DNA from: Vampirovibrio sp.
Lineage (GTDB): Bacteria > Cyanobacteriota > Vampirovibrionia > Vampirovibrionales > JAJTHC01
Direction: 5' to 3'
Length of the DNA stretch: 64,000 bases
NCBI GenBank assembly: GCA_024998755.1
Contig: JACEUU010000002.1
Coordinates: forward strand, 76,783-140,782
Shown in pieces: positions 4,729 to 64,000 of the stretch; positions within the stretch are counted from its first letter, which is position 1; every line of letters begins with the position of its first letter. Position numbers and translations under genes: made by a program. The notes beneath the pieces were generated by a model. It saw only the letters and a list, made by a program, of their open reading frames with translations, ran no database searches and had not been told where the DNA came from.

Positions 4729-6702
4729 TTATGCGTGGGTTGAAAACGTGGTGCTAGCTGAATGCTGTTTGGCAACAGGATTAATAAATAACTTGCCATT
4801 TCTGGGGTATAACGGAATTTTTCCTAACCGCAATAATGAAGGTAATTGGTTAGGCACAGGCTCATTGGGTTGTTTTTCTTGCAATTTTTTCTTAATGGCT
4901 TCAGCCACAATTTCGTTTTTAATAGCTTCTTTATCTACATTGGGCTTTAAGCGTTCAGGTATTGCTTCTCCAGAAAAATGACTAGCAGCCCAGTGTTGTA
5001 ATTTAGGCGAAGCCACCCCTAAAATGGCATAACTAACCACTAATGAACCGACTAAAGCAAAGGCTTTAGCCCCCATGCCTTTGTTAATTATTTTCGTTAC
5101 TTGGGCTTGGTCTTCGTACTGTGCCAGTTGGTTTAGTTTATGGAAGACGCCTTCCACTGTTTTGAAATTATCTAAAATGCCTTGTTTTGGGTTATTAAAC
5201 CCAAAGAAGGTTTTCACATGGTTGCTAAAACCTTTGACCGGCTCGTTTTTAATATCTGCCGCTTGGTTGAGGGGCTTTGAAATATCTTGCCCTAAAATTC
5301 TTTTTTCGTGGAACGGATTCAGATGCTCTAGCTTAAAGTTTTCATGCCAAACGGGTAATGTGCCATTGGCTATCAGTGTATCTATAATGACGTTTTCGCC
5401 TTTTTTGTAGGGCGTTTTTGCCATGTAGGTTTGAATGGCTTCTGCCACTTGGTCTTTTTTATTTAGCAGTACTTTAGCGTAATAGTTTTCATTGGGTTCA
5501 ATGGTGAATTTAGCGTGTTCTAACACATCTTGAGTCATACCCTTTGCCCATGAGGGTATTGGGGTGTTAATAGCATTTTGTTGAACCCTTTTCTCCGCTT
5601 CAGCACTTTGCAAGTGGGCTAAATCACCTAACTTAAGAGCATTGAGGCTTTCAATGTATGATTTTCTGAAATTTTGATTGGGCATGCCATAGTTTTGCCG
5701 TAAACTGGCAACGGCATCAAAGGAAAGTTCGCTAATGGGGGTGGCTTTCCCAAAGGTTTGCGATTCAAAAATGGTCTTTTTTAGGGCGTCATTCAGTAGC
5801 TGAGACCCAAAGTACACCATAAACACCAATATGGCTTCGTTTACTGCCCAACTTAATCTATCATAATTGCCTTCACTTTTCGTTAGTCTTCCGCCTGTAA
5901 TAAAGCCATCTACACCTAAATTGGTGAATGCAGGGTGGGTGTTTAAGAAGTCTACCGCTGCAATGGCATTGGTGGCTAAATCGGCTCCTTTTCTAGGGGC
6001 TGGGTTAGCGGTTGTGTTCTTCTTCTCTTCTTTTGTTGCTTTGGTGGTGTAGGTATTCGGTTCTTCGCTGGCATCTAAGGCAAACAGGCTAGGTTGCCAC
6101 TGTTTGGCTATATGTTGATAGAGTGCTTCTCGCTTGGCGTCGGACTTATTATGCGTCCGATGGTGTGCAAATTCCTGTAGTTTAACGCCAACCAAGTAGG
6201 AAGGTAAAATAACGGAAAGACCAATACCCACGGCTTGGGCAATTTTTCTGGTACTGGGGGGTATTTTGTCAAAACTTTTGCCGAGTGCTTCAAACCGTTG
6301 ATTGAGTTGCTTTTGCAGAACGGGTATATCTGCAAATTTTGATTGGCTGGTTTGTTTGATTGTTTGAAGCAAGCTTTTTTGTTCGGGCGAACCATCGGCA
6401 TTAATAAAGGGAAGCACGTTGGTTTGGTGTAATGCCCCTTCATACAGGTGTTTTAGTAAGAAAGAACCACCGCCCCAAATAAAGGCAGTACCCCACATAA
6501 TCAAGCTCATTTCCTGACCAAATTCAGGCGATTTTTGCTTGGCTTCGCTAATCATCCCAAAGTTTTGAAGGCTATCACGCACAATAAGCCCTGCTGGGTG
6601 GTTGGGGTTATCTAACGCAGCGGCAGCAGAAATAGCAGGCTTTGAAAAAGCCCAGTTTGCTAGTTGTGTTCCGCTGTTTGCTAGTGTAGAAACCATGTTC
6701 AT
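4729..6702 (-). CDS. Large hypothetical protein (~657 aa), possibly membrane-associated or an effector-like protein.
   Basis: Long ORF. The probable start is the ATGAACATG at 6702; the ORF track extends to 6765. No recognisable catalytic motifs. Confidence 0.45.
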   Translation of the reverse strand: MNMVSTLANSGTQLANWAFSKPAISAAAALDNPNHPAGLIVRDSLQNFGMISEAKQKSPEFGQEMSLIMWGTAFIWGGGSFLLKHLYEGALHQTNVLPFINADGSPEQKSLLQTIKQTSQSKFADIPVLQKQLNQRFEALGKSFDKIPPSTRKIAQAVGIGLSVILPSYLVGVKLQEFAHHRTHNKSDAKREALYQHIAKQWQPSLFALDASEEPNTYTTKATKEEKKNTTANPAPRKGADLATNAIAAVDFLNTHPAFTNLGVDGFITGGRLTKSEGNYDRLSWAVNEAILVFMVYFGSQLLNDALKKTIFESQTFGKATPISELSFDAVASLRQNYGMPNQNFRKSYIESLNALKLGDLAHLQSAEAEKRVQQNAINTPIPSWAKGMTQDVLEHAKFTIEPNENYYAKVLLNKKDQVAEAIQTYMAKTPYKKGENVIIDTLIANGTLPVWHENFKLEHLNPFHEKRILGQDISKPLNQAADIKNEPVKGFSNHVKTFFGFNNPKQGILDNFKTVEGVFHKLNQLAQYEDQAQVTKIINKGMGAKAFALVGSLVVSYAILGVASPKLQHWAASHFSGEAIPERLKPNVDKEAIKNEIVAEAIKKKLQEKQPNEPVPNQLPSLLRLGKIPLYPRNGKLFINPVAKQHSASTTFSTHA

Positions 6703-7234
6703 TGTGGATAAAATAACCTTGTTACAGTTGAAAAAGCTTAGACGATGATAGAACAACCCCCCCATTTAATCCCCTTGCTTTATGCTGGTTCTTCAGTAAC
6801 TGAAAAGAACCGGCATCAAAAAGAAAGGGTTCGGGGAAACCGCTACCTAGCTTTGTAACTAAACACTTGGATATGAAGAAATTAAGAGATGAAAAATAGG
6901 TGGTAACAGCAATGGGTGATTGATTATACTGAGAAAATAGGTGGTTAGAAAAGCCGTAGATCAATGAAAAGTGGGTTATTGAATTGCTGTTAGCGTCGTT
7001 TTTTTACTGGTTAATTCCCTATACTCTAGCATTGTTTGAAGCTAGGTAGGGCATTGTTCGTCGTTTTGATTGGATATTATTCATTAAAAAGCAAAACATA
7101 ATAAGTGAAAAACCTTCATTTGTAAAATGGTGTCTAATCGACACTTTTTAATTGTTACTTAGTAACTTACCATGCGAATAAAACGATTTCAAGCTTTTTT
7201 TGTGCTAGGCTTTTAATTAAGATTTTACCCTTTC

Positions 7235-7380
7235 ATACCATTTTCAAATTGGAATAGCGTTAGATGGATACTAGGCACTGTCAAGTAAAAAACCGCAGGC
7301 GTACACAGACGACCATTGAGGATTTTTTGCTTGACGGTAACAACGTAGACGCTGACGATAGTTCTATTTAAAATTGGTAT
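7235..7380. repeat. MITE-like element (family 1, copy A), ~146 bp with ~17-bp terminal inverted repeats (ataccattttcaaat.. / ..atttaaaattggtat) and an internal 13-bp-stem hairpin.
   Basis: About 90% identical to 37585-37731. It sits immediately 5' of the pentapeptide-repeat gene. Confidence 0.6.
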
Positions 7381-7406
7381 CAGTTGCTTTGGAGTTTTTT
7401 CCTCTT

Positions 7407-8018
7407 ATGTCTACAAACCCCATGTCGAATGCTCAAGTATTTACCCCCGAAGCGTTGGCTAATTTACCGTTGAAAGACCAGTTGTTTCGGTTGATTTTAG
7501 AACAACCGGATGGGGTTACCCGCTTTAATGCGTGGCGACAATCTACTGGGTTTCATGTGTTAGATTTATCGGAGCTTGATTTTACGGGCTGTAATCTTTC
7601 GGGTATTAATTTTTCTAATTGCAATTTGCTCAATTGCCAGTTTGAAGAAACCTTGTTGCATGAAGCTAAATTGGTTTTTGCGGTGTTGACGGGGTCGTTT
7701 TGTTTTAATGCTCAATTTTTTCAGGCTTCTATGGAAGAGGCTGATTTTAAGAATTGTGATTTAACAGGGGCTATTTTAACGGGGGTAGATGCGACGGAAG
7801 CCAGTTTTGAAGGGGCTACCTTGGTTGATGTTCAGGCTCAAGATGCGGACTTTACCTTGGCAACGTTTAAAAATTCAACGGTTCGGGATGTTGATTTTAC
7901 GGGGGCTATTTTGAAGCAGGCAAATTTCAAGGAAGCTACCTGCGTTGAATATTTGCAACTAGAAACCGCCATCATGGATGATACTACCCAATGGCCCGCA
8001 GGGTTTATTGCTCGGTAA
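7407..8018 (+). CDS. Pentapeptide-repeat protein.
   Basis: Tandem A(D/N)LxG-type pentapeptides (CNLSGINFSNCNLLNCQFEET...ADFKNCDLTGAILTGVDATEASFEGATL...). GGAG lies 12 nt upstream of the ATG at 7407; the track's TTG at 7374 lies inside the MITE. Confidence 0.65.
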   Translation: MSTNPMSNAQVFTPEALANLPLKDQLFRLILEQPDGVTRFNAWRQSTGFHVLDLSELDFTGCNLSGINFSNCNLLNCQFEETLLHEAKLVFAVLTGSFCFNAQFFQASMEEADFKNCDLTGAILTGVDATEASFEGATLVDVQAQDADFTLATFKNSTVRDVDFTGAILKQANFKEATCVEYLQLETAIMDDTTQWPAGFIAR

Positions 8019-16899: not shown

Positions 16900-17217
16900 T
16901 TGCGGTTTTCAACCGCCGTTGCCCCCTGCTTCGCACTCAACCCCGCCTTTCCCTCACCCTAGCCCTCTCCCAGAGGGAGAGGGGACGGTAAACCTAGGTA
17001 AACGGCGGGTTTTCGCCCTATGGGTGGGGCAACTAACGCTTTATTGCCCCCTCTCCCGCTGGGAGAGGGCTGGGGTGAGGGTTTTTAGAAACGGGAGGGT
17101 TTGAAACCCTTCCCTACACAATAGCCTAAATCTCGTCATGTTGAGCGTAGTCGAAACATCCCCCCAGACGCTAAGGAGATTCCTCGGCTACGCTCGGAAT
17201 GACAAAACACGCTATTT
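16900..17217. repeat. Cluster of family-2 GC-rich palindromic repeats, including the gtcatgttgagcg...gaatgacaaaacacgctattt module.
   Basis: ccctctccc-aga-gggagaggg and ccctctcccgctgggagagggctggggtgagggttttt match 2437-2478. The terminal module matches 28697-28773 and 54476-54567. Confidence 0.5.
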
Positions 17218-17314
17218 CTACTTGAATCCGCCTATAAAAATACCGATTAATCGGTTGTTATCTTTGTAATCCTAGTTAAAAGTTCTTGTAATTCTGCTTG
17301 ACGGTTCGACATTA

Positions 17315-18476
17315 TGAAGTTACGGAAAAAGGGCAAGGTAAAATAGAAGGGACATTATTCCACCTCTCATAGGATACCCCACCCCCATGACTACCTTTGC
17401 CGACATCCAAATTCAACAAGCCACCCCCACTCACAAATTCCTAGAGGAAATGAACCAAACCCTACCATGGCAACTATTTGAAACCATCCTCAAAACACAC
17501 ATCCACCACAAACCCAACGGCAGACCACCCTACAAACGCCTACTACTGCTCAAAATGAACCTCCTCAAAATATGGTTCAATCTCTCCTATGAACAAACCG
17601 AATTTCAATGCCACGACAGACTCTCCTTCCGAAAGTTTCTCGGCTTCTCCTTAGAATCCCCCATCCCTGAAGCCACGACACTCGAAAACTTCCAACACGA
17701 ACTGCAAAACACCCCAGCCCAAGAAGCCCTTTTCTTAGCCTTAGACACCTTCTTCCAAGAGAACAACCTCATTCTTAAAGAAGGCAACTTGGTAGATGCC
17801 ACCTTTATTAAAGCCAATAGCAAACAGAGAAAAAAGCCTGAAGACCAGAGCGACCCTGATGCCACTTATGGCTACAAAGGCTTTGGTTACAGTGCCACGG
17901 TTAATGTGGATGCTAAAAGCAAGTTGATTCGCAAGGTGGTTGTTACTGGTGCCAATGTGCATGACAGTCAGAGTTTACTGCCTGTACTGGTGGGCGATGA
18001 GCAGACTGTTGGTGCGGATAGTGGGTATGTGGGTAAGGAGAAGGATTTGAAGGCGTTGGGGATACAGCCGAGGATTATTAAGCGTCGTGTTCGGGGTAAG
18101 CAGCATGAACCAACGCCTGAGTTGACGGCTTCGCAGAAGCGGTTTAATGGGTTGGTTTCTAAGGTTCGGGCAAGAGTGGAGCATGTGTTTGCGGGTTGGA
18201 AGACGGTGTTTAAGAAGGTTCGTGTGTCTTGTCGTGGGTTAGTGCGTGTTTCTGCGGAGATTTTGGGCTTGGCATTTGGGTATAATTGTCGTCGGTATGG
18301 TTTTTTGGTGAGGAGGGGGGTAGGTTTTAGTGGATTCTTGTATGGTTTTTAGGTAATTATGATCCGAAAAGAGTGGAAACAAGGGGTATTGTTCTGTTTT
18401 TTGAGCATTTTTGGTTGAATTTTATTAAAAAACACTCACTACTCCCACCTGCACACCCTTATTCCGTAACTTCATT
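17315..18476 (+). mobile_element. IS5-family insertion sequence, copy 1 (~1.16 kb) with TIR tgaagttacgg...ccgtaacttca.
   Basis: The whole transposase is duplicated at 19961-21122 (inverted) and again at 63446 onward. The flanks tta|IS|tta suggest a 3-bp target-site duplication. Confidence 0.8.
17387..18352 (+). CDS. IS5-family DDE transposase (321 aa).
   Basis: DDE_Tnp_1-like organisation. Identical protein copies are at 20085-21050 (-) and 63518 onward (+). Confidence 0.8.
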   Translation: MTTFADIQIQQATPTHKFLEEMNQTLPWQLFETILKTHIHHKPNGRPPYKRLLLLKMNLLKIWFNLSYEQTEFQCHDRLSFRKFLGFSLESPIPEATTLENFQHELQNTPAQEALFLALDTFFQENNLILKEGNLVDATFIKANSKQRKKPEDQSDPDATYGYKGFGYSATVNVDAKSKLIRKVVVTGANVHDSQSLLPVLVGDEQTVGADSGYVGKEKDLKALGIQPRIIKRRVRGKQHEPTPELTASQKRFNGLVSKVRARVEHVFAGWKTVFKKVRVSCRGLVRVSAEILGLAFGYNCRRYGFLVRRGVGFSGFLYGF

Positions 18477-18499
18477 AATAAAAAGGGCAAGGTTTTTCA

Positions 18500-19270
18500 A
18501 TGGAAAAATATCCAGTAAAAGGCGAAGTGGATAGAATTAGTTTTTTAGATCAATTAACCACTGAAGAACTCAGTCTATTTCATCAAAATGGCACCCTGTT
18601 AACCATGAAAAAAAACGAACCGCTTGATTTGGATGACCCCAGCCACAAAAACAGTGCTTTTTTAGTAACTGAAGGCTTTGTTAAATTAACCACACTAAAC
18701 CTTGAAGGTAAAAAATTTTCGCTCAGCTTATTGCAAACAGGAGATTTGTCTGATTGGTTCTACAACCAAACTGGTGAAGAAAAGCCCTTCTTACAAACTG
18801 GGCATTGTAAGTTTTTAGAATCTATTACTGGCGTTTCGCAAGTCTTACGAATGAATGAAACGGTCTTTCAAGACCTGTTAGATAAAAAGCCCTCCCTCTA
18901 TGTAACCTTATGACGCGTAATGCAATGTAGAGTTTACACCGTGCAACGCCAATTAAGCGATGTTGTTTTTAAAGATGTACACGCCAGAATAGCCCAAACC
19001 TTGTTAGATATGGTGTTCCATTATGCGGAACTTTGCCCTTATGCCTTTGGCGTTGTAAGAGATGTTTGCCTAACCCACCAAGAAATTTCTGAATTGATTG
19101 GGGCTTCAAGACCTGTAACCTCATTAGCGTTGAACGATTTTAGTAGGGCTGATTTAGTTCATAAACACGACCGTTTTTTATGTCTGCAAAATATACCTGG
19201 TTTAGAAATAGTTGCTCAAGAAGGGTATCAAGCCCTTAAAAAAATAAGTAGTGCCTTGGTTGTTAGCTAG
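18500..19270 (+). pseudogene. Crp/Fnr-family transcriptional regulator interrupted by an in-frame TGA at 18914-18916 (cNMP-binding half 18500-18913, HTH half 18920-19270).
   Basis: The two ORFs are in the same frame, 6 nt apart. The first has the beta-roll cNMP-binding fold; the second has the Crp-type HTH (HQEISELIGASRPVTS). TGA is a genuine stop elsewhere in this window (48863-48865). Confidence 0.6.
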
Positions 19271-19388
19271 CTAACAGATATGTGTGAAACAATCTGTTAC
19301 GATAAGTTTAACGAGTTCGGAAAAAAGTATTTTTTCAGTTCGTTTGTTTGTTATCCCTCTTAGTTTCTACTTTTGGAGTATTGAATTC

Positions 19389-19508
19389 ATGAATCTTTCT
19401 ATCGCTAAATTGGCATTAGTTGCCGCTGTTATGTTACAAGGTGCAAGTTTCGCTAACCCTGCTAACACAGATATGTTCCAAATGACCGAAGCCACCAATA
19501 TGTCTTAA
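19389..19508 (+). CDS. Small secreted peptide: a Sec signal peptide plus 18 aa. It continues in frame past a TAA stop into a Cys/Lys-rich segment ending at 19631.
   Basis: GGAG lies 11 nt upstream of the ATG. MNLSIAKLALVAAVMLQGASFA is a classic signal peptide. The in-frame continuation is SNTLIANKKCGSGSCGGKETTKKCAAKKCAAKKCGASEKK*, followed by a terminator hairpin. Confidence 0.45.
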   Translation: MNLSIAKLALVAAVMLQGASFANPANTDMFQMTEATNMS

Positions 19509-19649
19509 TCAAACACACTCATTGCTAACAAAAAATGTGGTTCTGGCTCTTGTGGTGGTAAAGAAACAACCAAGAAATGTGCGGCTAAAAAGTGTGCAGC
19601 TAAAAAATGTGGTGCTTCTGAAAAGAAATAATCGAACCCCTTTCGTTAC

Positions 19650-19690
19650 AGGCGGCTCTGCAAAAGAGCCGTCTGTTTTAAAGATTATTG
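19650..19690 (+). terminator. Rho-independent terminator candidate after the Cys-rich frame.
   Basis: aggcggctct-gcaaa-agagccgtct hairpin followed by gtttta. Confidence 0.45.
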
Positions 19691-19699
19691 CTTCGGACT

Positions 19700-19925
19700 A
19701 TGATGGATGCGTTAGGGGGACTGGCGTCAGCCCCCCCTAACAACCCCCCACCGCTTAAGGGGAAAGGTGGCATTAGCATGCGTCCTCCCCCCTTAAGAAT
19801 CCCCCCTCCCTACCGCTAAGGGCTGACTTGTTTACACGCACGTTGAAAACAGGCTTGACCGGAAGCTAGAAGCTCCCTAATTGGTCTGCTTCACTACGTT
19901 CGCACCAGCCTATTTCCAACTGGGT
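19700..19925. repeat. Family-4 composite repeat; inverted copy of 4495-4690.
   Basis: See the 4495-4690 entry. It is rich in G6-7 and C6-7 tracts. Confidence 0.45.
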
Positions 19926-19960
19926 ATGATTTAAAACTAAAAATCATAAGAAACAGTTCA

Positions 19961-21122
19961 AATGAAGTTACGGAATAAGGGTGTGCAGGTGGGAGTAGTG
20001 AGTGTTTTTTAATAAAATTCAACCAAAAATGCTCAAAAAACAGAACAATACCCCTTGTTTCCACTCTTTTCGGATCATAATTACCTAAAAACCATACAAG
20101 AATCCACTAAAACCTACCCCCCTCCTCACCAAAAAACCATACCGACGACAATTATACCCAAATGCCAAGCCCAAAATCTCCGCAGAAACACGCACTAACC
20201 CACGACAAGACACACGAACCTTCTTAAACACCGTCTTCCAACCCGCAAACACATGCTCCACTCTTGCCCGAACCTTAGAAACCAACCCATTAAACCGCTT
20301 CTGCGAAGCCGTCAACTCAGGCGTTGGTTCATGCTGCTTACCCCGAACACGACGCTTAATAATCCTCGGCTGTATCCCCAACGCCTTCAAATCCTTCTCC
20401 TTACCCACATACCCACTATCCGCACCAACAGTCTGCTCATCGCCCACCAGTACAGGCAGTAAACTCTGACTGTCATGCACATTGGCACCAGTAACAACCA
20501 CCTTGCGAATCAACTTGCTTTTAGCATCCACATTAACCGTGGCACTGTAACCAAAGCCTTTGTAGCCATAAGTGGCATCAGGGTCGCTCTGGTCTTCAGG
20601 CTTTTTTCTCTGTTTGCTATTGGCTTTAATAAAGGTGGCATCTACCAAGTTGCCTTCTTTAAGAATGAGGTTGTTCTCTTGGAAGAAGGTGTCTAAGGCT
20701 AAGAAAAGGGCTTCTTGGGCTGGGGTGTTTTGCAGTTCGTGTTGGAAGTTTTCGAGTGTCGTGGCTTCAGGGATGGGGGATTCTAAGGAGAAGCCGAGAA
20801 ACTTTCGGAAGGAGAGTCTGTCGTGGCATTGAAATTCGGTTTGTTCATAGGAGAGATTGAACCATATTTTGAGGAGGTTCATTTTGAGCAGTAGTAGGCG
20901 TTTGTAGGGTGGTCTGCCGTTGGGTTTGTGGTGGATGTGTGTTTTGAGGATGGTTTCAAATAGTTGCCATGGTAGGGTTTGGTTCATTTCCTCTAGGAAT
21001 TTGTGAGTGGGGGTGGCTTGTTGAATTTGGATGTCGGCAAAGGTAGTCATGGGGGTGGGGTATCCTATGAGAGGTGGAATAATGTCCCTTCTATTTTACC
21101 TTGCCCTTTTTCCGTAACTTCA
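19961..21122 (-). mobile_element. IS5-family insertion sequence, copy 2, inverted relative to copy 1.
   Basis: Reverse complement of copy 1 end to end. Its flanking triplets do not match each other (ata vs ttt). Confidence 0.8.
20085..21050 (-). CDS. IS5-family DDE transposase (copy 2).
   Basis: Identical 321-aa product. Confidence 0.8.
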   Translation of the reverse strand: MTTFADIQIQQATPTHKFLEEMNQTLPWQLFETILKTHIHHKPNGRPPYKRLLLLKMNLLKIWFNLSYEQTEFQCHDRLSFRKFLGFSLESPIPEATTLENFQHELQNTPAQEALFLALDTFFQENNLILKEGNLVDATFIKANSKQRKKPEDQSDPDATYGYKGFGYSATVNVDAKSKLIRKVVVTGANVHDSQSLLPVLVGDEQTVGADSGYVGKEKDLKALGIQPRIIKRRVRGKQHEPTPELTASQKRFNGLVSKVRARVEHVFAGWKTVFKKVRVSCRGLVRVSAEILGLAFGYNCRRYGFLVRRGVGFSGFLYGF

Positions 21123-21138
21123 TATAAGGAACTCAATG

Positions 21139-21524
21139 AGATGCAATCATTATTGCGTGTTACTTTTGCTGGTTTTCAGCCAGCAGTTTTGGGTACCAAG
21201 CATCAGGCTACTGGCGTTCAGCAACCCAGTGCTGTTGGGCAGTTAGCTCAAACACAAACCACAGATGTTTTAGGTGCTATGCCACACTACCGTCCATTAC
21301 CTATAGGGGTACGTTCTGGTAATAATGTAGACAAACTAGTTAGGCAGGAACTAGCTGAACTTGGAAAAGATATTGAAGCTGGTGAACGAAAAATCGCGCA
21401 ACTTGAAGAAGCTGTACAGAAAGATCATCTATCAGAGGAGCTTATTACTCGGGTAGAAGAGGTGATAGCAGACTTACAAGAAGAATTGGGAACAAAGAAG
21501 GTACAAAAGGACAGACTAAGTTAA
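21139..21524 (+). CDS. Hypothetical protein, paralog 1 of a pair that shares a near-identical 60-aa N-terminal module. Its C-terminus is coiled-coil-like.
   Basis: Nt 21139-21320 are ~97% identical to 21858-22040. The track ORF start at 21003 lies inside IS copy 2, so the real start is taken as the ATG at 21139. Confidence 0.5.
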
Positions 21525-21857
21525 CTGGTTCCTAACCAAATTGTGGAACGTTCATTACTGCTAGCTTTTACCGAAAATATTAGCTTTAAATCATATACAG
21601 TTGAAGATAGACTGGTACAAGAGTAGCGAATCAGACCAAAATGAATTCATAGGGGCAGATGCAATCCACCCCCTACAGTTGGTTAAATTTTTAAGCTACT
21701 AGACCTCATGAACACTGCTTACTTGAATTCGCTTTGAGGATTTTTATTTACAAAAAATTATTTTACTGCTAAAATAAATTTTTAATATGACTTTACTTAA
21801 CTAATGATTCGCTTTTAACTTAATCTTTCTATAAAAAATGATGTAAGGGACTAAGTA

Positions 21858-22460
21858 ATGCAATCATTATCGCATGTTACTTTTGCTGGTTTTCAGCCAG
21901 CAGTTTTGGGTACCAAGCATCAGGCTACTGGCGTTCAGCAACCCAGTGCTGTTGGGCAGTTAGCTCAAACACAAACCACAGATGTTTTAGGTGCCATGCC
22001 CCACTACCGTCCATTACCGATAGGGGTACGTTCTGGTACTGGAGACATTGAAAAACTACTGGCACATCTTCATCAAGAAATAAACGAGAAAACTATTGAA
22101 GGCCTGCTGGCAGATCTTGAAAAAGCAGAACGATTAAAAGATGTTACTGCATCAATGAAAAAAATAGACACTGTTGTGGAGAATTTGTTGGATCGTGCAT
22201 TAGCATCTACACCCGATGTTTTTATGCTTAATAGATTAGAGGCAATAGCAAAATTAGTTGATGAACTGAAACAGAACCAAGCAAATCGGGAAGCTACCAC
22301 TGCATCAATCCAAAAGCTCAACACAGTTGTAACCGTTTTTTTAAGCCATATAGAAGCATGTAATGAACGTTACTATGCCAGTTACGATACTTTAACTGTT
22401 AATGCACTAACTATGTTAAAAGAATTAGCAGCAGAATTAGCTGGCATTTTAAAAAAATAA
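21858..22460 (+). CDS. Hypothetical protein, paralog 2: the same N-terminal 60 aa with a different all-helical C-terminal domain.
   Basis: MQSLSHVTFAGFQPAVLGTKHQATGVQQPSAVGQLAQTQTTDVLGAMPHYRPLPIGVRSG is shared with 21139-21524. Confidence 0.5.
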   Translation: MQSLSHVTFAGFQPAVLGTKHQATGVQQPSAVGQLAQTQTTDVLGAMPHYRPLPIGVRSGTGDIEKLLAHLHQEINEKTIEGLLADLEKAERLKDVTASMKKIDTVVENLLDRALASTPDVFMLNRLEAIAKLVDELKQNQANREATTASIQKLNTVVTVFLSHIEACNERYYASYDTLTVNALTMLKELAAELAGILKK

Positions 22461-24361: not shown

Positions 24362-25537
24362 TTATTTGCCAAATAGCGAAATCGAAGTGGCTTCACCGCC
24401 GTTCAGCTTAACAAGAAATTCGTGAAGTTCATTCATTAATTGAGCCGTTTCTGGCTCAATTGAAAAATGATTGTCTCTACAATCTACAAAACTTTCAATT
24501 CGCCCTTCTATTGACGGGTTTTTTTTAATGAACTGCTTTTCTTCCTCTGTGAATAATGAGGTTCGAGTTTCATATTGATGAATGGCTTCCTTGTATATTT
24601 TTAGTTCACGCACAGCAAAAGTTATTTGATTTGGTTCTACCGATTTGAGGTTAGGTAAGTTGCTTACTTCTTCTAAAACTTCACAAGTTTCTCTTAACAA
24701 CACTTGCAAAATAAGTGGATTTACTTTTTCCTTTTCTGATAAGGATTGAATCAACAACAACAGGGGTTCGCAAGGCTTGGTAGGTGCGTCTGGATAGAGA
24801 TTTCTTGTTAGGGTTTCTCTCTGTTCATGTTTTGCTTTGATTTCAGCTAAAGTTTTTTCAATTTTAGGTACTATTTCTTTATTTTTAGACATATAAGCTT
24901 CAATAAAACCTTCTTTTCCTCCTCGTATAAAGTTAATGCTAATTTGGTGTTCTGCTTCTTTTCTAGCATTAAATTGAATACGATTCATAGCATTACCAAT
25001 ATAATTTGCAAACACCATGAGTTTATCCATTTTTTCATCTAACTGATTTATTTGATGGGACTGTAAACTAGATTGCTTATATAAAAAAAAGAGATCGCTT
25101 TTCGCCTCCAGTAACAATCGTCGCATCTCGGAAAGTCCAGACTCCAAATCTTCGCCATTCGTTCTGTTTTTGAGTTGCTTTTCTAATCTATCCAACTTTT
25201 TTTCCATCTGGGCTAGTGCCGTCTGCACTTCGTGCAACGCTCCCTTGTTTGCATGGTTCATTTTTGAATAAAGTAAACCCACCCCAAAAACAGCACACAA
25301 ACTAGCAATAAAGCCCATGGTAGCCAAAACAACAGACGTTTTATCTGCTACCGGCACTTCCCTAATAACAACCTTCGGTGGCACGGATGGCTTTTCAGAA
25401 GATTTTTTCTCAAAGCTATCGACTACTTCAATCGGGTTGTCTTTTCCCGCATCTCGTGGGCTTGCCAGTTTCTTCCCCTGCCCAAGCGGAGGATAAGAAT
25501 TGCTGAAGGTTAAAGCGGTAGGCACTATTGTCATCAT
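24362..25537 (-). CDS. Hypothetical membrane-anchored coiled-coil protein.
   Basis: One transmembrane helix (VVLATMGFIASLCAVFGVGLLY) followed by long heptad-rich helical sequence. Confidence 0.4.
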   Translation of the reverse strand: MMTIVPTALTFSNSYPPLGQGKKLASPRDAGKDNPIEVVDSFEKKSSEKPSVPPKVVIREVPVADKTSVVLATMGFIASLCAVFGVGLLYSKMNHANKGALHEVQTALAQMEKKLDRLEKQLKNRTNGEDLESGLSEMRRLLLEAKSDLFFLYKQSSLQSHQINQLDEKMDKLMVFANYIGNAMNRIQFNARKEAEHQISINFIRGGKEGFIEAYMSKNKEIVPKIEKTLAEIKAKHEQRETLTRNLYPDAPTKPCEPLLLLIQSLSEKEKVNPLILQVLLRETCEVLEEVSNLPNLKSVEPNQITFAVRELKIYKEAIHQYETRTSLFTEEEKQFIKKNPSIEGRIESFVDCRDNHFSIEPETAQLMNELHEFLVKLNGGEATSISLFGK

Positions 25538-28689: not shown

Positions 28690-28696
28690 AACTAAT

Positions 28697-28773
28697 CACG
28701 TCATGTTGAGCGTAGTCGAAACATCCCCTTAGACAGCTCGGGAGATTCCTCGAATTCGCTCAACATGACATGA
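28697..28773. repeat. Family-2 palindromic element (gtcatgttgagcg ... cgctcaacatgac).
   Basis: A 13-bp perfect terminal inverted repeat. Relatives are at 17133-17217 and 54476-54567. Confidence 0.5.
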
Positions 28774-28780
28774 ATTAGTA

Positions 28781-29761
28781 TTAAATCGAAAAATTTTCGT
28801 CTGCTTGATTTAAATGCGTTAGCGTTACAAACACATCTTCTAACGAAGGTTCTATTTCACGAACCCCTCTCGCATCAATTTCCGCTTGGCGTAAATCCAA
28901 CAATAATTGTTCCTTTGGTATCGTATCTGGCATGGTAACGTGCAAAGCCTGCCCAAAAATCGTTACATCCTGCACATACGGGAACGCCTTCACCTTATTA
29001 AATGAAGCAACCAAGGGTCTGCAGACCAATTCATACCGAGAAACGCCTTCGCCAACCACGGCTCTTAAATGTTTTAATTCATCTGGCCCGCCGGAAACAA
29101 TGAGTTTAGAATTATAAATATAGCCTACGCTACTGCAGCGTTCCGCTTCATCCATGTAATGAGTGGTTACAAACAACGTAACGCCACTGCTGGCAAGGGT
29201 AAACAACAAATCCCACAAATGCCGACGGGCAACTGGGTCCATTGCAGCAGTGGGCTCATCTAAAAAAATGATATCGGGGGAATGCACCAAAGCACAACAC
29301 AACGCCAACCGTTGCTTCCAGCCACCAGAAAGTTGCTTGGCCAAATAATTAGCGTAAGGTTCAATACCGACCAATTCCTTTACTGCCCGCTTACTGGCTT
29401 CACCTGTTTTACCCGTAACGCCATAAAGCCCTGCATAGAAATCTAAATTTTCAGAAACCGTTAAATCTTCATACAAGCTGAATTTCTGAGGCATATAGCC
29501 TATATAACGTCGAATTAATTCTGGTTCTTGCTCAACATCAATACCACAAACTAACGCTTTACCTGAGGTTGGTGGCATTAATCCACAAAGCATCTTAATG
29601 GTGGTAGATTTCCCTGAACCATTGGGGCCTAGAAAGCCATAAATTTCGCCCTTACCCACCCGTAAATCCAATGAATCAACCGCAATTCGGTCGCCAAATT
29701 TACGCACTAATTTTTCGGTTACAATCACATTGTCATTGGGTGCTGAAGCGTCAAAAATCAT
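28781..29761 (-). CDS. ABC transporter ATP-binding protein (ABC-2 / DrrA-like).
   Basis: Walker A GPNGSGKST, the LSGG signature and Walker B DEPT. It is translationally coupled to the upstream HlyD gene. Confidence 0.75.
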   Translation of the reverse strand: MIFDASAPNDNVIVTEKLVRKFGDRIAVDSLDLRVGKGEIYGFLGPNGSGKSTTIKMLCGLMPPTSGKALVCGIDVEQEPELIRRYIGYMPQKFSLYEDLTVSENLDFYAGLYGVTGKTGEASKRAVKELVGIEPYANYLAKQLSGGWKQRLALCCALVHSPDIIFLDEPTAAMDPVARRHLWDLLFTLASSGVTLFVTTHYMDEAERCSSVGYIYNSKLIVSGGPDELKHLRAVVGEGVSRYELVCRPLVASFNKVKAFPYVQDVTIFGQALHVTMPDTIPKEQLLLDLRQAEIDARGVREIEPSLEDVFVTLTHLNQADENFSI

Positions 29762-29763
29762 TG

Positions 29764-30957
29764 CTAAGTAGCGTCCTGATTCACAACTATTTGTACAGAC
29801 ATTCCTGGAAACAACCGAATTACATTGATATCCGCTGCTGGGGAAACTTCAATTCTGATTCTAAAAGTAGCTTCTGTACCAGTGGAAGCATCTGCTGTAG
29901 CACCAGAACCAGAAGGAACAAACTCACTTTTAGGACTAATAAACGCTACTTCTCCGGAAAATTTAGCATTAGGATAAGCCTTACTTTTAATGTTTACTTT
30001 TTGCAGACGATGTAGAAATTGGAGCTTGGATTCTGGCACGAATAAATCCACCCATAAATGGTTACTATCTAAAATATTGACGGCTGGCACATCTGGTGGC
30101 ACAACCTGCCCTAACGAAACAGTCAACAAATTAACCGTACCTTTAATGGGGGAAAGTACAGTAGACTCTTCCATTTTAACTTTTAACCCTTGCACAATAC
30201 TGGCAGCACGTTGGATTTCAGCATCGGCAATTTTTAATTCAGCAGGATTAACTTTTTCCTTCAGCTTGCTTAGCTGGGCTGTTGCCCCTGACCGTTCCGC
30301 CTTGGCGATACCAATTTCTTCCATTCTAGCCCCTTTTCGCACGAGTGAAACTCTCGCTTTGGCTGCTAATAACGCACTTTGGGCCGATTCTAAATTGTTT
30401 TGAATTTCGTCTACTTTTTGTTGGGAAATAATACCACTAGCCAGTACTTGTTTCGCTTGTTCTAATTGATTTTTACAGACCCTTACTTTGGCTTCTACTT
30501 CACGCACCTTGGCTTGAGCTTCCGCTAATTCTTCAGGGCGTCCGCCATTGACTAACAAGGCAATACGTTCGTTCGATTGCTGTACTTTGGCTTGTGCCTG
30601 TTGAATGTCATTGGGGGAAATGGCGGTCAGCAACAATTCTTTTTTAGCTTTTACTTGGGCTAAACTCGCTTCGGCTTCCATCAGCTTAGCTAAAATTTCC
30701 TTATTTTCAAACCGAAGTAATGGTGTACCGGCCTGCACTTCCATGCCCTCTTTTACAAGAACGGCGGAAACACGCCCCCCTAATCGAGAACCATTTTTAA
30801 CTTCTTCCGCTTGTAAAACACCATTAAATAATAGTGGGCTATTAAACCACCCAGACCACCATGGTTTCGCCAATAAAACAGCCCCTAATAATAAGGCTAA
30901 TAACAATAATAGCTTTAACTGGTTGGTTGTAACCCATTTAATGAATTTAATCGTCAT
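29764..30957 (-). CDS. HlyD-family membrane-fusion (secretion/efflux) protein.
   Basis: N-terminal transmembrane anchor, a long coiled-coil and a beta-barrel C-terminus typical of HlyD/EmrA. Confidence 0.7.
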   Translation of the reverse strand: MTIKFIKWVTTNQLKLLLLLALLLGAVLLAKPWWSGWFNSPLLFNGVLQAEEVKNGSRLGGRVSAVLVKEGMEVQAGTPLLRFENKEILAKLMEAEASLAQVKAKKELLLTAISPNDIQQAQAKVQQSNERIALLVNGGRPEELAEAQAKVREVEAKVRVCKNQLEQAKQVLASGIISQQKVDEIQNNLESAQSALLAAKARVSLVRKGARMEEIGIAKAERSGATAQLSKLKEKVNPAELKIADAEIQRAASIVQGLKVKMEESTVLSPIKGTVNLLTVSLGQVVPPDVPAVNILDSNHLWVDLFVPESKLQFLHRLQKVNIKSKAYPNAKFSGEVAFISPKSEFVPSGSGATADASTGTEATFRIRIEVSPAADINVIRLFPGMSVQIVVNQDAT

Positions 30958-37584: not shown

Positions 37585-37731
37585 AATACCATTTTCAAAT
37601 AGGAATAGCGTTAGATGGATACTAGGCACTGGCAAGTAAAAAACCGCAGGCGTACACAGACGTACGTTGAGGATTTTTTGCTTGACTGTAACAACGTAGA
37701 CGCTGACGATATTTCTATTTGAAAATGGTAT
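37585..37731. repeat. MITE-like element (family 1, copy B) with perfect 17-bp TIRs (ataccattttcaaatag).
   Basis: About 90% identical to 7235-7380. It sits immediately 5' of paralog B. Confidence 0.6.
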
Positions 37732-37760: not shown

Positions 37761-38441
37761 ATGCCCATCAATCCGTTCATAAATAATTTATCTTCAGCTT
37801 TTTCAGCACACCCACCCACACCAAGGAAAAGTAGTCCTCGGGAAGAACTAGACGACGACTTTGCTACTGCCAATGATGATAACAATGGTGATACGGTAGA
37901 GTTTTCAAATAAATCTGCCAGTAAAATTTCAAAAAAAATAGACAAGCTTCAAGAAGCCCAAGATAACGCTGATGAATTGCAAGAACTAAAAGAACAACAG
38001 CAATTGCTTCAGCAGTTGGATAAAGAAGAAATTCACGCCGCTAAAGTGAAAGCGTCATTTTGGGGGTCTATTCCTTATATCGGTCCGTTTATTGGTATTT
38101 TTAGCAACGTCTTTGTTTCGCCTGAAAGCAATGTGGCTAACAGAACGGATGTTCGGTTAAATGGCAGAGACGAAGACGACGCCTTGAAACAAGAAAAGCG
38201 AATTAAAACGGCTAAAATTAAAGCAGCCTTAGTAACTGCCGTTCCGCAAGTAATTGGGTTTACCTTAACCACTATTGGTGGGTTTATGACTAAACACGCT
38301 GAAGAAAACAAGAAAAGTACCTCGTTAGCAAAGGCTCTGATGTTAGCTGGAACGATTATAGGTACCACCTGTGGTTTAACAACCTTAGGCTATTGGTTAG
38401 GCGAAAAACCAGCGTCTAAAGACTTCAACAAAACTTTGTAG
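37761..38441 (+). CDS. Hypothetical protein, paralog B of 36752-37519.
   Basis: See paralog A; it has the MITE upstream. Confidence 0.5.
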   Translation: MPINPFINNLSSAFSAHPPTPRKSSPREELDDDFATANDDNNGDTVEFSNKSASKISKKIDKLQEAQDNADELQELKEQQQLLQQLDKEEIHAAKVKASFWGSIPYIGPFIGIFSNVFVSPESNVANRTDVRLNGRDEDDALKQEKRIKTAKIKAALVTAVPQVIGFTLTTIGGFMTKHAEENKKSTSLAKALMLAGTIIGTTCGLTTLGYWLGEKPASKDFNKTL

Positions 38442-47480: not shown

Positions 47481-47668
47481 AGGTCTGTCATGAAACAGAC
47501 CTCTTGCATGACTTGATAGGTGGGTGCAGATTTAAGGAATACGGAACGGACTGAGGACGTTTACATAAGGTAAATAACTATTGATTGCTCTGCAATCACT
47601 CCGCTTCTAGCGGGGAGTGCCGTAAATGAAAAAAAGATGCCCCAGATATCGAATCATGAAAGAGGTCT
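47481..47668. repeat. MITE-like element (family 3) with TIR agacctcttgcatgac... / ...aagaggtct. It includes a perfect 9-bp hairpin at the purA 3' end.
   Basis: An inverted copy is at 61170-61313. This copy ends 3 nt before the start of 47672. Confidence 0.5.
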
Positions 47669-54475: not shown

Positions 54476-54567
54476 AATAGCGTCATGTTGAGCGAAAGCA
54501 AAACATCTCCTGTACTTGTCTTTGGGGATTCTTCACATTCGTTCAGGATGACAAAACACCCTATTTA
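54476..54567. repeat. Family-2 palindromic element (cgtcatgttgagcg ... ggatgacaaaacaccctattt).
   Basis: Shares the termini and internal gattc core with 17133-17217 and 28697-28773. Confidence 0.5.
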
Positions 54568-61169: not shown

Positions 61170-61313
61170 AGACCTCTTGCATGACTCGATATCTGGGGCA
61201 TCTTCGTTGTCATTTACGGTACTCGAATTCTTATGTACTTCCGTGTACACCTCAAATTCTGCGTTCCTCATTCCTAGAATCTGCACCCACCTATTGAGTC
61301 ATGCAAGAGGTCT
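61170..61313. repeat. MITE-like element (family 3), an inverted copy of 47481-47668.
   Basis: TIR agacctcttgcatgact / agtcatgcaagaggtct. Its interior matches the reverse complement of 47600-47660. Confidence 0.5.
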
Positions 61314-61651
61314 ATTGTTAAACAAAACGGAGAAATATTAACACCAGAAATAGCCAATGCTTCTTCAGGGCCTTTCAACAGTTTGTTCAAACAGTCTGGG
61401 CTTGAAAGACTCAACTTTTTTGCTGCGTTATTTAATACTTCAATATCAGTAGAATTAACGAGCCATGCCACCATTTCTTAGGTTATGAAAGGTTTGAGGA
61501 AAGGGGTCTTCTTTTTTATTGTTGACTTAAACGAGGGTGGAACACTAACAGAAGGGCGAATAGAACATAATATAACCCTAATATAAAAGTGAATTTTTAA
61601 CGTTTGTTGTTTGAATTTAGCTTAAACATCCCCACATAACCATGGTATTTA

Positions 61652-62521
61652 TTAAACTGCAACAGACCCCACCACAATGCCAAGCGGATGCAACTGCACA
61701 CATAAAAACGATTGAAACCCTGCTTCAATAGCTGGTGTTAGTGCCATGCCATAAGCTGAACACGCTTCTTCCAACAAGACACGATAAGACTTTTTTTCAC
61801 CATGCGACTGTAACGCCAAACTTAAAAATTGCTGCACCACCCCTGAAACTTTGAAAAATCGGCAAGAAAAATCTGAATCTCTGTAAACCCATAGAATTAA
61901 AGGGTCTGCAGCGGCTGCCCATTGTGTTGGCAAATCCGTTTCAGCTTCTTTACACTGCTTTAGTTGCTCCACTATTAAATCAACCGCATAAAAACTAGAA
62001 AAGCTAGAAGAAGCTGGGTTTAAAACAGGACTTGCCGTCTCTAAATCATCTGTTAAACAAGGATTCTTTAAAATTTGAGCTTCGGCTTTCGAAATGGAGG
62101 TGGTGTCTTTTAGCAGCTGGGCTTCCAATTGTTCATAGGTTGCTAAATCTTCCAAAAAAGGAAAGGCTTCAGTCAAAGCTTCCTGTTCCGATAAAAAAGA
62201 AGGGAACGCCTTTACCACATCAAACAACTGATAAGATTGCGGCGGATGTGCCTGCAAATAAGCTGAAACCAACCCATCCCATCGGTCAGAAACGAATTGA
62301 TAAGTGTAGGGGTAAATGGCTTCTAGGGCTTCTTGATGGTTGGCGAAAACCATCCACTGGTATTGTTTTAATCGGTCTTCTTCTAGTTGAAAAAAGGCTT
62401 CAACTAACGGCGTTTTAGGCTGGTTCTTTAGGGCTTCAAACGAAGAAATTTCATGCGAAAAAGGCTGAAAGGTAATTTCTACAAATAGGGCTTGAAAGTC
62501 TTTTAGTGAAGGTGTATTCAT
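61652..62521 (-). CDS. DUF2063-family protein (MbnC / BufC / TglI-like partner of DUF692 enzymes).
   Basis: N-terminal region YQWMVFANHQEALEAIYPYTYQFVSDRWDGLVSAYLQAHPPQSYQL matches the DUF2063 signature (xVYRNNxxxSLxxALxxxYPxTxxLxGxxxFxxLAxAYxxAHP). Confidence 0.65.
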   Translation of the reverse strand: MNTPSLKDFQALFVEITFQPFSHEISSFEALKNQPKTPLVEAFFQLEEDRLKQYQWMVFANHQEALEAIYPYTYQFVSDRWDGLVSAYLQAHPPQSYQLFDVVKAFPSFLSEQEALTEAFPFLEDLATYEQLEAQLLKDTTSISKAEAQILKNPCLTDDLETASPVLNPASSSFSSFYAVDLIVEQLKQCKEAETDLPTQWAAAADPLILWVYRDSDFSCRFFKVSGVVQQFLSLALQSHGEKKSYRVLLEEACSAYGMALTPAIEAGFQSFLCVQLHPLGIVVGSVAV

Positions 62522-63405
62522 GACTTACCTCCAACTTTGCTTTTAACTGAAGCTAAAGCCACTGTTTTAACCTGTTGTAACTCCGTCATTAATGTTTTAA
62601 ACGGGGGAATGTTTGTATCTCGTTCTAATAAAACGCCTTTTAAATTAGGGCACTGCGGATAAATAGCCCCTAGTAAGGCAAAAACCTCATCGCAAATGGG
62701 TTCGCCGTGGGTGTCAATTAAAAACGATTCGGTGGCTAAATGCCCTGCAATATGAATTTCCACGACACGTTCTAGGGGTAAGCCAGCAACAAAATCTTCG
62801 ACATTTTCCTGATGATTTTGGCAGTTCACGAAAATATTATTCACATCAAGCAGAATGCCACAATCGGCGGTTTCAACAATGGTTCGCATAAAATCCGCTT
62901 CGGTATACTGGTTGATACTGGGAAAACGGGCGTAGGTTGAGGCATTTTCAATTAAAAACGGACGCTGAAATTTATCTTGTAAAACTTTGATTTTATCTGC
63001 ACAAACTTGAACGGCTTCACGGGTGAAGGGTAGGGGGATTAAATCATTTAAATACCGCCCATTAACCGAGCTAAAACTGAGGTGGTCGCTAAACCACAGT
63101 GGATTGATTGTTTCAAATAATGCGGTTAATTCAGCTAAATAAGTAGGGTTAATAGGGTCTACACTACCAAGAGAAAGACCGACACCATGCGAAGTAATGG
63201 GGTAGCCTTTGGCAATAAGGGCTTCTAGGTTTTTGGCGGTTTGCCCGCCTTTACCCATAAAATTTTCTGGGATGAGTTCAATCCATTCCAGCAAGGTAGG
63301 TGGTTGGGCGGGGGGTAGAATATCGTCATAATACTCATTTTGCATGCCAATACCAAACCCGATATTGGGGATATTTTTAATAGATTTAAAGAAGGGTGTA
63401 GACAT
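62518..63405 (-). CDS. DUF692-family TIM-barrel di-iron enzyme (MbnB / BufB / TglH-like RiPP maturase).
   Basis: WIELIPENFMGKGG...HGVGLSLGS.DP...WFSDHLSF......IPLPFTREAV...LIENASTY are all hallmark DUF692 blocks. It overlaps the DUF2063 gene by 4 nt (ATGA). Confidence 0.7.
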   Translation of the reverse strand: MSTPFFKSIKNIPNIGFGIGMQNEYYDDILPPAQPPTLLEWIELIPENFMGKGGQTAKNLEALIAKGYPITSHGVGLSLGSVDPINPTYLAELTALFETINPLWFSDHLSFSSVNGRYLNDLIPLPFTREAVQVCADKIKVLQDKFQRPFLIENASTYARFPSINQYTEADFMRTIVETADCGILLDVNNIFVNCQNHQENVEDFVAGLPLERVVEIHIAGHLATESFLIDTHGEPICDEVFALLGAIYPQCPNLKGVLLERDTNIPPFKTLMTELQQVKTVALASVKSKVGGKS

Positions 63406-63445: not shown

Positions 63446-64000
63446 TGAAGTTACGGAAAAAGGGCAAGGTAAAATAGAAGGGACATTATTCCACCTCTCA
63501 TAGGATACCCCACCCCCATGACTACCTTTGCCGACATCCAAATTCAACAAGCCACCCCCACTCACAAATTCCTAGAGGAAATGAACCAAACCCTACCATG
63601 GCAACTATTTGAAACCATCCTCAAAACACACATCCACCACAAACCCAACGGCAGACCACCCTACAAACGCCTACTACTGCTCAAAATGAACCTCCTCAAA
63701 ATATGGTTCAATCTCTCCTATGAACAAACCGAATTTCAATGCCACGACAGACTCTCCTTCCGAAAGTTTCTCGGCTTCTCCTTAGAATCCCCCATCCCTG
63801 AAGCCACGACACTCGAAAACTTCCAACACGAACTGCAAAACACCCCAGCCCAAGAAGCCCTTTTCTTAGCCTTAGACACCTTCTTCCAAGAGAACAACCT
63901 CATTCTTAAAGAAGGCAACTTGGTAGATGCCACCTTTATTAAAGCCAATAGCAAACAGAGAAAAAAGCCTGAAGACCAGAGCGACCCTGATGCCACTTAT
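63446..64000 (+). mobile_element. IS5-family insertion sequence, copy 3, truncated by the window end. Its left end lies 41 bp upstream of the DUF692 gene start.
   Basis: Nt 63446-64000 are identical to 17315-17869. Confidence 0.8.
63518..64000 (+). CDS. IS5-family DDE transposase (copy 3, 3'-partial).
   Basis: Identical N-terminal 161 aa. Confidence 0.75.
   Translation, partial: MTTFADIQIQQATPTHKFLEEMNQTLPWQLFETILKTHIHHKPNGRPPYKRLLLLKMNLLKIWFNLSYEQTEFQCHDRLSFRKFLGFSLESPIPEATTLENFQHELQNTPAQEALFLALDTFFQENNLILKEGNLVDATFIKANSKQRKKPEDQSDPDATY

Follow-up and report, generated by a model that had tools for sequence, protein, structure and literature searches.

Within the 64,000-nucleotide stretch of DNA analysed here (the window), two genes lie in tandem on the forward strand, namely gene A (21141..21524; 127 aa; H2174_01775 / MCS6266273.1), which joins a conserved N-terminal module (N-module) to one helical hairpin, and gene B (21858..22460; 200 aa; H2174_01780 / MCS6266274.1), which joins the same module to a four-helix tail. 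Both are ORFs; the product of A exactly matches an NCBI MAG protein, and that of B is present exactly in the NCBI MAG ("MAG: hypothetical protein H2174_01780 [Vampirovibrio sp.]") and in ENA contigs. A repeat finder returned a two-copy direct repeat at 21141-21321 and 21858-22038 (181 nt, 97% identity), each copy of which begins at the ATG of its ORF, and the five differences between the copies comprise two non-synonymous and three synonymous changes. The repeat covers the N-modules of A (codons 1-60, 21141..21320, forward strand; 97% nucleotide identity to the B module) and B (codons 1-60, 21858..22037, forward strand), whose first 60 residues agree at 58 of 60 positions (the exceptions being L5S and R6H), in keeping with an earlier note on this DNA that had described tandem paralogs with a near-identical N-terminal module of about 60 aa. 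The similarity ends abruptly past ...GVRSG, beyond which A carries an acidic helical hairpin with a net charge of -6 (21321..21521, forward strand) and B carries two helical hairpin units of ~55 aa (22038..22457, forward strand; internal repeat, AF2). No further copy of the repeat was found in the window by tblastn. A spacer of 333 nt separates A from B, and B is followed by a convergent gene for an AMP-binding enzyme. The window ORFs scanned were housekeeping genes (encoding, among others, the AMP-binding enzyme, ProRS, IMPDH, LpxC, purine synthesis, DnaJ and GrpE) together with some ORFs that had no Pfam match.

A search for other genes with this N-terminus, along the lines that the earlier note had envisaged, recovered a third paralog, C (P0003, H2174_01980, 126 aa), which is encoded on the same 696-kb MAG contig and combines the same 60-aa N-module with a third tail. 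Searching an N-module profile against 1.84 billion cluster representatives yielded six real members, and a word-indexed search with all members as queries picked out 12 among 5.8 billion clusters, so that the comparisons below draw on a sample of about 12 proteins, with DNA for only 6 loci. All named members were labelled Vampirovibrio sp., a predatory, non-photosynthetic relative of the cyanobacteria, and the family was found in Vampirovibrio-like metagenomes. Family members had no match, and nothing near the cut-off, among Pfam, NCBIfam and PDB sequences, and none of the listed titles and abstracts on Vampirovibrio secretion and effectors mentions such a family. Scanning 185,579 GTDB species genomes with N-module patterns gave two matches, a DprA-like ORF and a Kangiella ORF, both rejected as chance, the GTDB species representatives evidently lacking the source MAG; a scan of JGI metagenomes with the same patterns likewise gave two chance matches, on high-GC contigs. 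By these searches, the family is very small, unannotated and limited to one Vampirovibrio-like lineage.

Read across 8-9 family members, the N-module contains a core that is invariant in all of them, L.QTQTTDVLGA.P.YRPLP...R.G. In AF2 models, residues 1-60 of B had pLDDT values below 50, and the N-module of A remained below 50 up to residue 47 and reached about 51 at residues 51-60; the module carries a charge of +2 to +4, compared with -3 to -15 for the tails, and is thus predicted to be a basic, disordered segment of ~60 aa. Its maximal 10-residue hydropathy (0.9-1.6) was well below that of two real signal peptides from the same organisms (2.4-3.3), a comparison by which a Sec-type hydrophobic core is absent. 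Neither a twin-arginine motif nor a lipobox cysteine was seen in the N-module sequence, cysteine was absent from every N-module examined, and the module/tail junction is Gly-rich, reading RSG-T/N-G/N with no constant GG. The earlier suggestion that the conserved segment is a trafficking module therefore did not hold, given that it matched no known family, contained no Sec-type core and was predicted to be disordered.

The level at which this segment is conserved can be read from its most divergent relatives. Between B and the distant gene at locus L011, 17 of 25 differences in the core (codons 34-60) fall at third codon positions, and different codons are used at 14 of 30 identical residues. 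Because the differences follow codon positions and identical residues use different codons, constraint is placed on the peptide, and the N-module is, on this codon evidence, conserved as a protein and not as a nucleic-acid element. An RNA leader, a recombination site or a regulatory site within the conserved 180 nt would be in line with the low module dS among close copies (0.05-0.15, versus 0.27 in the tail) and with a hairpin followed by TTTT inside the module at 21166-21186 and 21883-21903. Third-position substitutions in the distant member, which indicate protein constraint, nevertheless largely refute such an element, Rfam had no match at the locus (the whole window gave only a tRNA) and the hairpin is broken in paralog C, leaving this explanation scarcely credible. 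The reading of the hairpin as an RNA element or attenuator was ruled out on the same two grounds, the broken hairpin in C and substitutions that track codon positions. The adjacent UTR, for comparison, has diverged by about 10%, and the low N-module dS does not lie significantly under that figure.

We examined the tails by structure prediction and by shuffle-tested alignment. The tail of A was modelled by AF2 as a hairpin (H62-94 and H99-126), and that of B as four helices within residues 63-199 (pLDDT about 80-95), which are predicted to form a four-helix bundle; the description of both C-termini as helical was accordingly borne out by high-confidence predictions. Alignment of the A and B tails gave no significant similarity (Smith-Waterman z = 2.1; 11 of 300 shuffles reached the score), while the B tail is an internal duplication of a hairpin unit of ~55 aa (z = 4.8; 0 of 300 shuffles) and the C tail is distantly homologous to that unit (z = 4.6; 0 of 300 shuffles). 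For a partial upstream gene in L005, links were found with C (z = 6.1) and with the P0007 class (z = 5.7), and the A tail could be linked to no other tail. The claim that the C-terminal domains are unrelated thus fails for B and C, which are distant homologs, and the tail of A alone stays unlinked. The tails, predicted to consist of one or two acidic helical hairpins and 45-140 aa in length, had fold matches to generic helical bundles only, they hold 0-1 Cys, and many of them end in Lys/Arg-rich stretches. Plant pectin-methylesterase/invertase inhibitors gave the best non-designed fold match, a weak and generic one; this match to an inhibitor-like fold stands beside a prey that is a walled alga.

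Small tandem helical hairpins that form paralogous families and pair into four-helix bundles are a feature of the WXG100 / Esx proteins. Tandem small helical hairpins are also present here, and the models suggest that single hairpins could pair into four-helix bundles resembling the covalent double hairpin of B. The conserved element of the present family is, in contrast, the N-terminal disordered arm; no tail of the family members examined has a WXG turn motif or a WXG100 match, and the window ORFs scanned included no type VII secretion genes.

Upstream of B lies a promoter/5'-UTR block of 133 nt (21710..21842, forward strand) that is common to the spacers of related arrays, being identical at 120 of 133 positions to both L004:2733-2865 and L005:376-508, which in turn agree with each other at 132 of 133. 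Both the window and L005 have the block 5' of the B-position gene, and L004 has it 3' of C. A consensus scan identified within it a sigma-70-type promoter candidate, TTTACA-17-TAAAAT with an upstream TG (21747..21775, forward strand; 10 of 12 matches), and a similar TTTACAAAAA..TTTA box lies 5' of the distant member in L012/L013. The region upstream of C resembles that of the genes with the 133-nt block only across the last ~40 nt before the ATG.

The upstream flank of A is interrupted by an insertion sequence. IS copy 2 (19961..21124, reverse strand; 1164 bp, transposase at 20085-21050) is a 100% inverted repeat of IS copy 1 (17313..18476, forward strand), the two together bracketing a segment of 1484 bp, and a third copy (63446..64000, forward strand) is cut by the window end. 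The element has the terminal repeat GAAGTTACGGAA, and its transposase matched the Pfam families DDE_Tnp_1 and DUF772 (E = 3.8e-21 and 1.5e-17); it belongs to the IS5 family, combining DDE_Tnp_1 and an N-terminal DUF772 with inverted repeats at its termini and, where the insertion site was rebuilt, a TA duplication. The IS ends at 21124 and the ATG of A begins at 21141, which agrees with the distance of 16 nt noted earlier. These 16 nt (21125..21140, forward strand; TAAGGAACTCAATGAG) represent a remnant of the A 5' UTR and ribosome-binding site from which the native promoter block is missing, and they are identical to the bases upstream of the intact L005 gene. The flanking DNA had also been described as unrelated between the two paralogs; upstream of A this is true only through displacement by the IS, and it is not true of the remaining 16 nt, which resemble the ribosome-binding region of B.

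Related loci allowed the insertion site to be rebuilt. In L004, the order is C, the 133-nt block and the right end of the IS, at ...AAAAAATGATA; in the window, TATAAGGAACTCAATGAG and the ATG of A come after the left end of IS copy 2. Joining L004:2840-2865 to window positions 21125-21140, with the TA duplication taken into account, gives the exact uninterrupted L005 sequence. The joined flanks rebuild L005, so a single IS5-family element entered the spacer between C and A, 16 nt before the A ATG, and cut A from its promoter block; A may now be silent. The accession numbers place 38 proteins between B and C (C being 39 above B), about 35-40 ORFs separate B from IS copy 3, and IS copies 2 and 3 are mutually inverted. 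On the basis of this accession numbering and of the junction sequences, and with the window ending inside IS copy 3, recombination between copies 2 and 3 probably inverted ~42 kb, which placed C a short way past the right end of the window. The proximity of the IS is best read as damage to the array and not as part of the system. Near that same end, positions 62518-63405 encode a 295-aa protein that is not on record. From the reconstructed junctions, A and B are two of the three members of a tandem array, C-A-B, in the genome from which the window derives.

Comparable arrays in relatives differ in their contents. In L005, a C-like gene precedes an A/B hybrid in which the 5' end of A sits on a B-type tail, and L010 carries a single C/B hybrid; in a distant lineage, P0017 and P0007 adjoin on one contig, and P0008 lies on a second contig from the same sample and possibly from another genome. 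Each tail in an array has the 180-nt N-module on its 5' side, and on its 3' side the 133-nt promoter/UTR block that belongs to the following gene. Since a tail is thereby enclosed between two conserved segments, homologous recombination between paralogs or alleles replaces tails and alters the size of the array, with the 133-nt block serving as the 3' homology arm for tail exchange; unequal crossing-over and cassette exchange would both be expected from this layout.

Direct comparison of strains revealed such exchanges. L004 (the C locus) and L010, from another strain, were 98.7% identical over 2286 columns, including a neighbour gene (dS = 0.02), and this identity ran to L004:2336, the last base of the N-module, beyond which the tails were unalignable. 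The L010 tail is B-type, is 88% identical to the L005 allele and is truncated by a frameshift or stop. The reverse case was observed between P0009 and P0017, which share 93% identity in their tails and only 44% in their N-modules. Cassette recombination, which had been proposed from the two window copies, was confirmed by this breakpoint exactly at the module end and by the reverse case, and the architecture of a conserved N-terminal module with variable C-terminal parts holds in the paralogs as well as in the relatives. In the close clade, N-modules are 92-98% identical and tails 23-64%; between B and its ortholog, dS and dN were 0.046 and 0.038 in the N-module, and 0.27 and 0.22 in the tail. 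Each value comes from a single pair, and the resulting tail dN/dS, about 0.8, could reflect relaxed constraint just as well as diversifying selection. By these alignments, module and tail evolve independently of each other; the tail alleles are older than the modules that carry them and have been re-assorted by recombination at the domain boundary.

The same data bear on whether A and B are simply a recent partial duplication or decaying duplicates, with the 181 nt as the youngest duplicated part, which the earlier note had foreseen should these be the only two copies and tails elsewhere be uniform. Genomes hold only 2-3 copies, the P0005 allele is frameshifted or truncated, and A is without its promoter, all of which would suit decay. 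The same genome contains the third paralog, however, and at least five tail classes occur among the relatives; the design of module plus tail has been kept, with synonymous turnover, where N-modules have fallen to 40-60% identity, the tail folds are confidently predicted, one tail class is 93% conserved on different N-modules, and breakpoints recur at the same domain boundary. We therefore consider mere duplication or decay very improbable.

Mycoplasma vsp, vlp and vsa arrays are organised in a similar manner, with a conserved 5' UTR and N-terminal block in each gene, a divergent remainder and chimeras produced by recombination, and the N-terminal block there encodes a lipoprotein signal peptide with a lipobox. 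Tandem repetition of a 5' UTR together with an N-terminal coding block was also found here, the 133-nt block and the 180-nt module recurring at the B-position gene of both the window and L005 and, as rebuilt from L004 and 21125-21140, at A. Chimeras and copy-number change through recombination are likewise shared, whereas the N-module has neither the signal peptide nor any Cys, and neither a phase-variable promoter tract nor a site-specific recombinase was seen at this locus. The organisation is thus of a known kind, built from parts without described relatives. Collectively, we regard it as highly probable that these genes form a modular orphan family, in which a translated, disordered arm with an invariant motif is joined to helical tails, recombination acts at the boundary between them, and the array has been broken by an IS.

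The earlier note had further proposed a family of polymorphic effectors or toxins with a trafficking module at the N-terminus; on this reading, the N-module would carry alternative toxic or effector C-termini into prey or competitors. Polymorphic toxins (Rhs, CDI/CdiA-CT, LXG, MafB) do share with this family a conserved N-terminus, a variable C-terminus, a breakpoint at the junction and clustering, and the modular architecture with tails swapped at the module boundary is what such a system would show. Further points in the same direction are the Lys/Arg-rich ends of many tails and a secreted alpha/beta-hydrolase, with a sub-threshold cutinase match, whose gene adjoins paralog C; in addition, a published account describes the Vampirovibrio lineage as predatory (PMC4451040). 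The trafficking domain of those toxins is large, however, and here it is replaced by a 60-aa disordered peptide in which Pfam, NCBIfam, hydropathy and AF2 revealed no recognised trafficking domain (signal peptide, Rhs/YD, LXG, PAAR, TPS or MafB-N). The toxin fold, immunity gene and orphan cassette found in those systems are likewise replaced by small helical hairpins or bundles lacking all three: no nuclease, deaminase, peptidase, pore-former or other toxin or enzyme domain was identified in the tails, which have only generic bundle matches. No small co-oriented, immunity-like ORF was found 3' of A or B, or after any copy, and no secretion apparatus was encoded among the window ORFs scanned. 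Silent tail cassettes in the window were sought with tblastn of both tails and rejected, only the genes themselves being returned. The proposal, left with no toxin domain, no downstream immunity-like gene and no silent cassette in the window, accordingly lost most of its ground, and we consider it quite unlikely.

Precursors of the prochlorosin type, with a Nif11/NHLP leader, have a conserved N-terminus of ~60 aa and hypervariable C-termini, and occur in several copies per genome in cyanobacteria. The family described here shares the conserved segment of ~60 aa, the hypervariable C-termini, the several copies and the cyanobacterial phylum, and its tandem copies and sharp, Gly-rich junction would also accord with export by a leader peptide as in bacteriocin or prochlorosin precursors, with the 60 aa being cleaved off as a leader and the tails being exported as products. 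Those precursors have short cores rich in Cys, Ser and Thr, whereas the tails here are long and are predicted to be folded, helical domains. The N-module gave no match to Nif11, NHLP or any other leader family at E <= 1 and has no consistent Gly-Gly site. No modification enzyme, export gene or peptidase-containing ABC exporter is adjacent; an ABC/HlyD pair at 28781-30957 contains ABC_tran and HlyD domains only, its ABC protein (28781-29761) being without a peptidase domain. Leader-peptide export is for these reasons highly improbable.

Neighbouring genes were also compared across the distant members, and no gene emerged as a conserved partner of the family. In P0008, P0009 and P0015, the family gene lies beside a pentapeptide-repeat gene, and in P0008 and P0009 an orphan gene of ~675 aa also follows; orthologs of the pentapeptide-repeat and ~675-aa orphan proteins are encoded at 4729-8018 of the window, with 59% and 71% identity. 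One distant contig has fliJ-fliK-flgD-flgE ~4 kb from the family gene, and none of 20 further window ORFs scanned is a flagellar gene, so that the flagellar link is a weak one, a lead only.

This neighbourhood bears on a role inside the cell, in which the proteins would be adaptors or regulators, a short linear motif in the arm tethering each paralog to one conserved cytoplasmic partner (for instance a sigma factor, a protease or the export gate of the flagellum) and the acidic tail binding clients or mimicking nucleic acid or protein. The pairing of a basic, disordered arm (+2 to +4) with an acidic tail (-3 to -15) is consistent with such a role, as are the absence of any export signal found in the N-module, the flagellar genes in distant relatives and the modelled capacity of single hairpins to pair like the bundle of B. 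Regulators with a fixed partner, however, rarely show strain-level replacement of tails or a tail dN/dS near 0.8, no flagellar neighbourhood was found among the window ORFs scanned, and no regulator family was matched. FlgM in particular had no match in any of 8 members at E <= 1, and differs in that its conserved sigma-28-binding helix region is C-terminal, where the present family is variable. We consider an adaptor or regulator role unlikely.

On balance, the best overall explanation, to which we assign a probability of about 60%, is a C-A-B array of a modular family with a shared docking arm and variable tails. The N-module would act as a docking peptide that takes every paralog to one partner, either an export route or an intracellular hub, and the helical tail would offer a variable interaction surface, whose diversity may be maintained by conflict with a changing counterpart, for example prey, phage or competitors. 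That the proteins are exported or surface-exposed is possible, though we doubt it. More specifically, the N-module might be an undescribed export or delivery signal of Vampirovibrio-like predators, perhaps acting via a flagellar-type or type IV apparatus, with a population-level repertoire of small four-helix-bundle proteins as cargo that would bind and inhibit variable prey or competitor targets, a speculative and improbable extension.

With about a dozen sequences, the family has its value as a lead, and nothing in it contradicts current understanding. The locus offers a clean natural case of cassette exchange at a domain boundary between near-identical strains, and also of an IS insertion and then, as the accession order and junctions suggest, an inversion dismantling a gene array. 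If the docking-arm reading is true, the N-module would be a compact, sequence-defined tag for a set of fast-diversifying proteins of predators that are akin to the cyanobacteria and have been little studied, and this tag would provide a handle on what these bacteria present to, or inject into, their prey.

The junctions of IS copy 2 (window 19961-21124), IS copy 3 (window 63446-64000, cut by the window end) and L004:2865-3224, at the locus carrying the third family member, paralog C, were compared. The junction sequences imply that flanks have been swapped between IS copies 2 and 3, with an inversion of approximately 42 kb as the result. The dinucleotide TT abuts the element in both the left flank of IS copy 3 and the right flank of IS copy 2, as expected if these flanks were once the two sides of one insertion. 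IS copies 1 and 2 (window 17313-21124) are inverted relative to each other and 100% identical across 1164 nt, and because of this identity and orientation they look like a composite transposon around the 1484 bp that they enclose. Within this segment, an in-frame TGA (18911-18913) splits the gene for a Crp/Fnr-like regulator, and an in-frame TAA (19506-19508) breaks a small gene whose product has a signal peptide and, after it, a repeat rich in Cys and Lys (KKCGSGSCGG...KKCAAKKCAAKKCG), reminiscent of metal-binding peptide precursors. At the other end of IS copy 2, a 173-aa ORF (21003-21524) starts at a GTG within the element (21003) and continues in frame across the IS end into gene A; this ORF is probably accidental, and its frame could allow translation of gene A from an IS-borne transcript.

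Other repeats in the window comprised dispersed REP-type repeats of about 40 nt (17129-17169, 28694-28734 and 54476-54516; 2435-2474 and 17047-17086), one set of which overlaps a tRNA-Ser call at 17019-17119 made by ARAGORN and not by Rfam, and a 55-nt inverted repeat pair (47494-47548 and 61262-61316) with 87% complementarity and 13.7 kb between copies. A 146-nt non-coding repeat (7235-7380 versus 37586-37731, 94% identity), for which Rfam gave no match, lies directly 5′ of two different genes, a pentapeptide-repeat gene (7374-8018) and an orphan (37761-38441), and includes a promoter-like stretch (TTGAC...TATTTAAAAT). This repeat may be a regulatory leader common to both.

At window 4729-8018, a 678-aa orphan on the minus strand accompanies the pentapeptide-repeat protein. 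Orthologs of these two (59% and 71% identity) flank the family gene in L011, a locus with a distant family member, and the contig of the distant member P0008 matches its gene order. The array may first have been located in this region (4729-8018), some 13 kb away from where it lies now. A low-GC (32-36%) 391-aa orphan (24362-25537, minus strand) without a Pfam match lies two genes from gene B; its N-terminus is disordered, and it has a long coiled coil as well as a single predicted membrane helix. Adjoining paralog C, L004:56-1734 encodes a secreted 346-aa alpha/beta-hydrolase, with cutinase and serine-aminopeptidase matches that are both sub-threshold, and a 158-aa Cys-rich orphan; these two could be genes linked to predation that neighboured the ancestral array.
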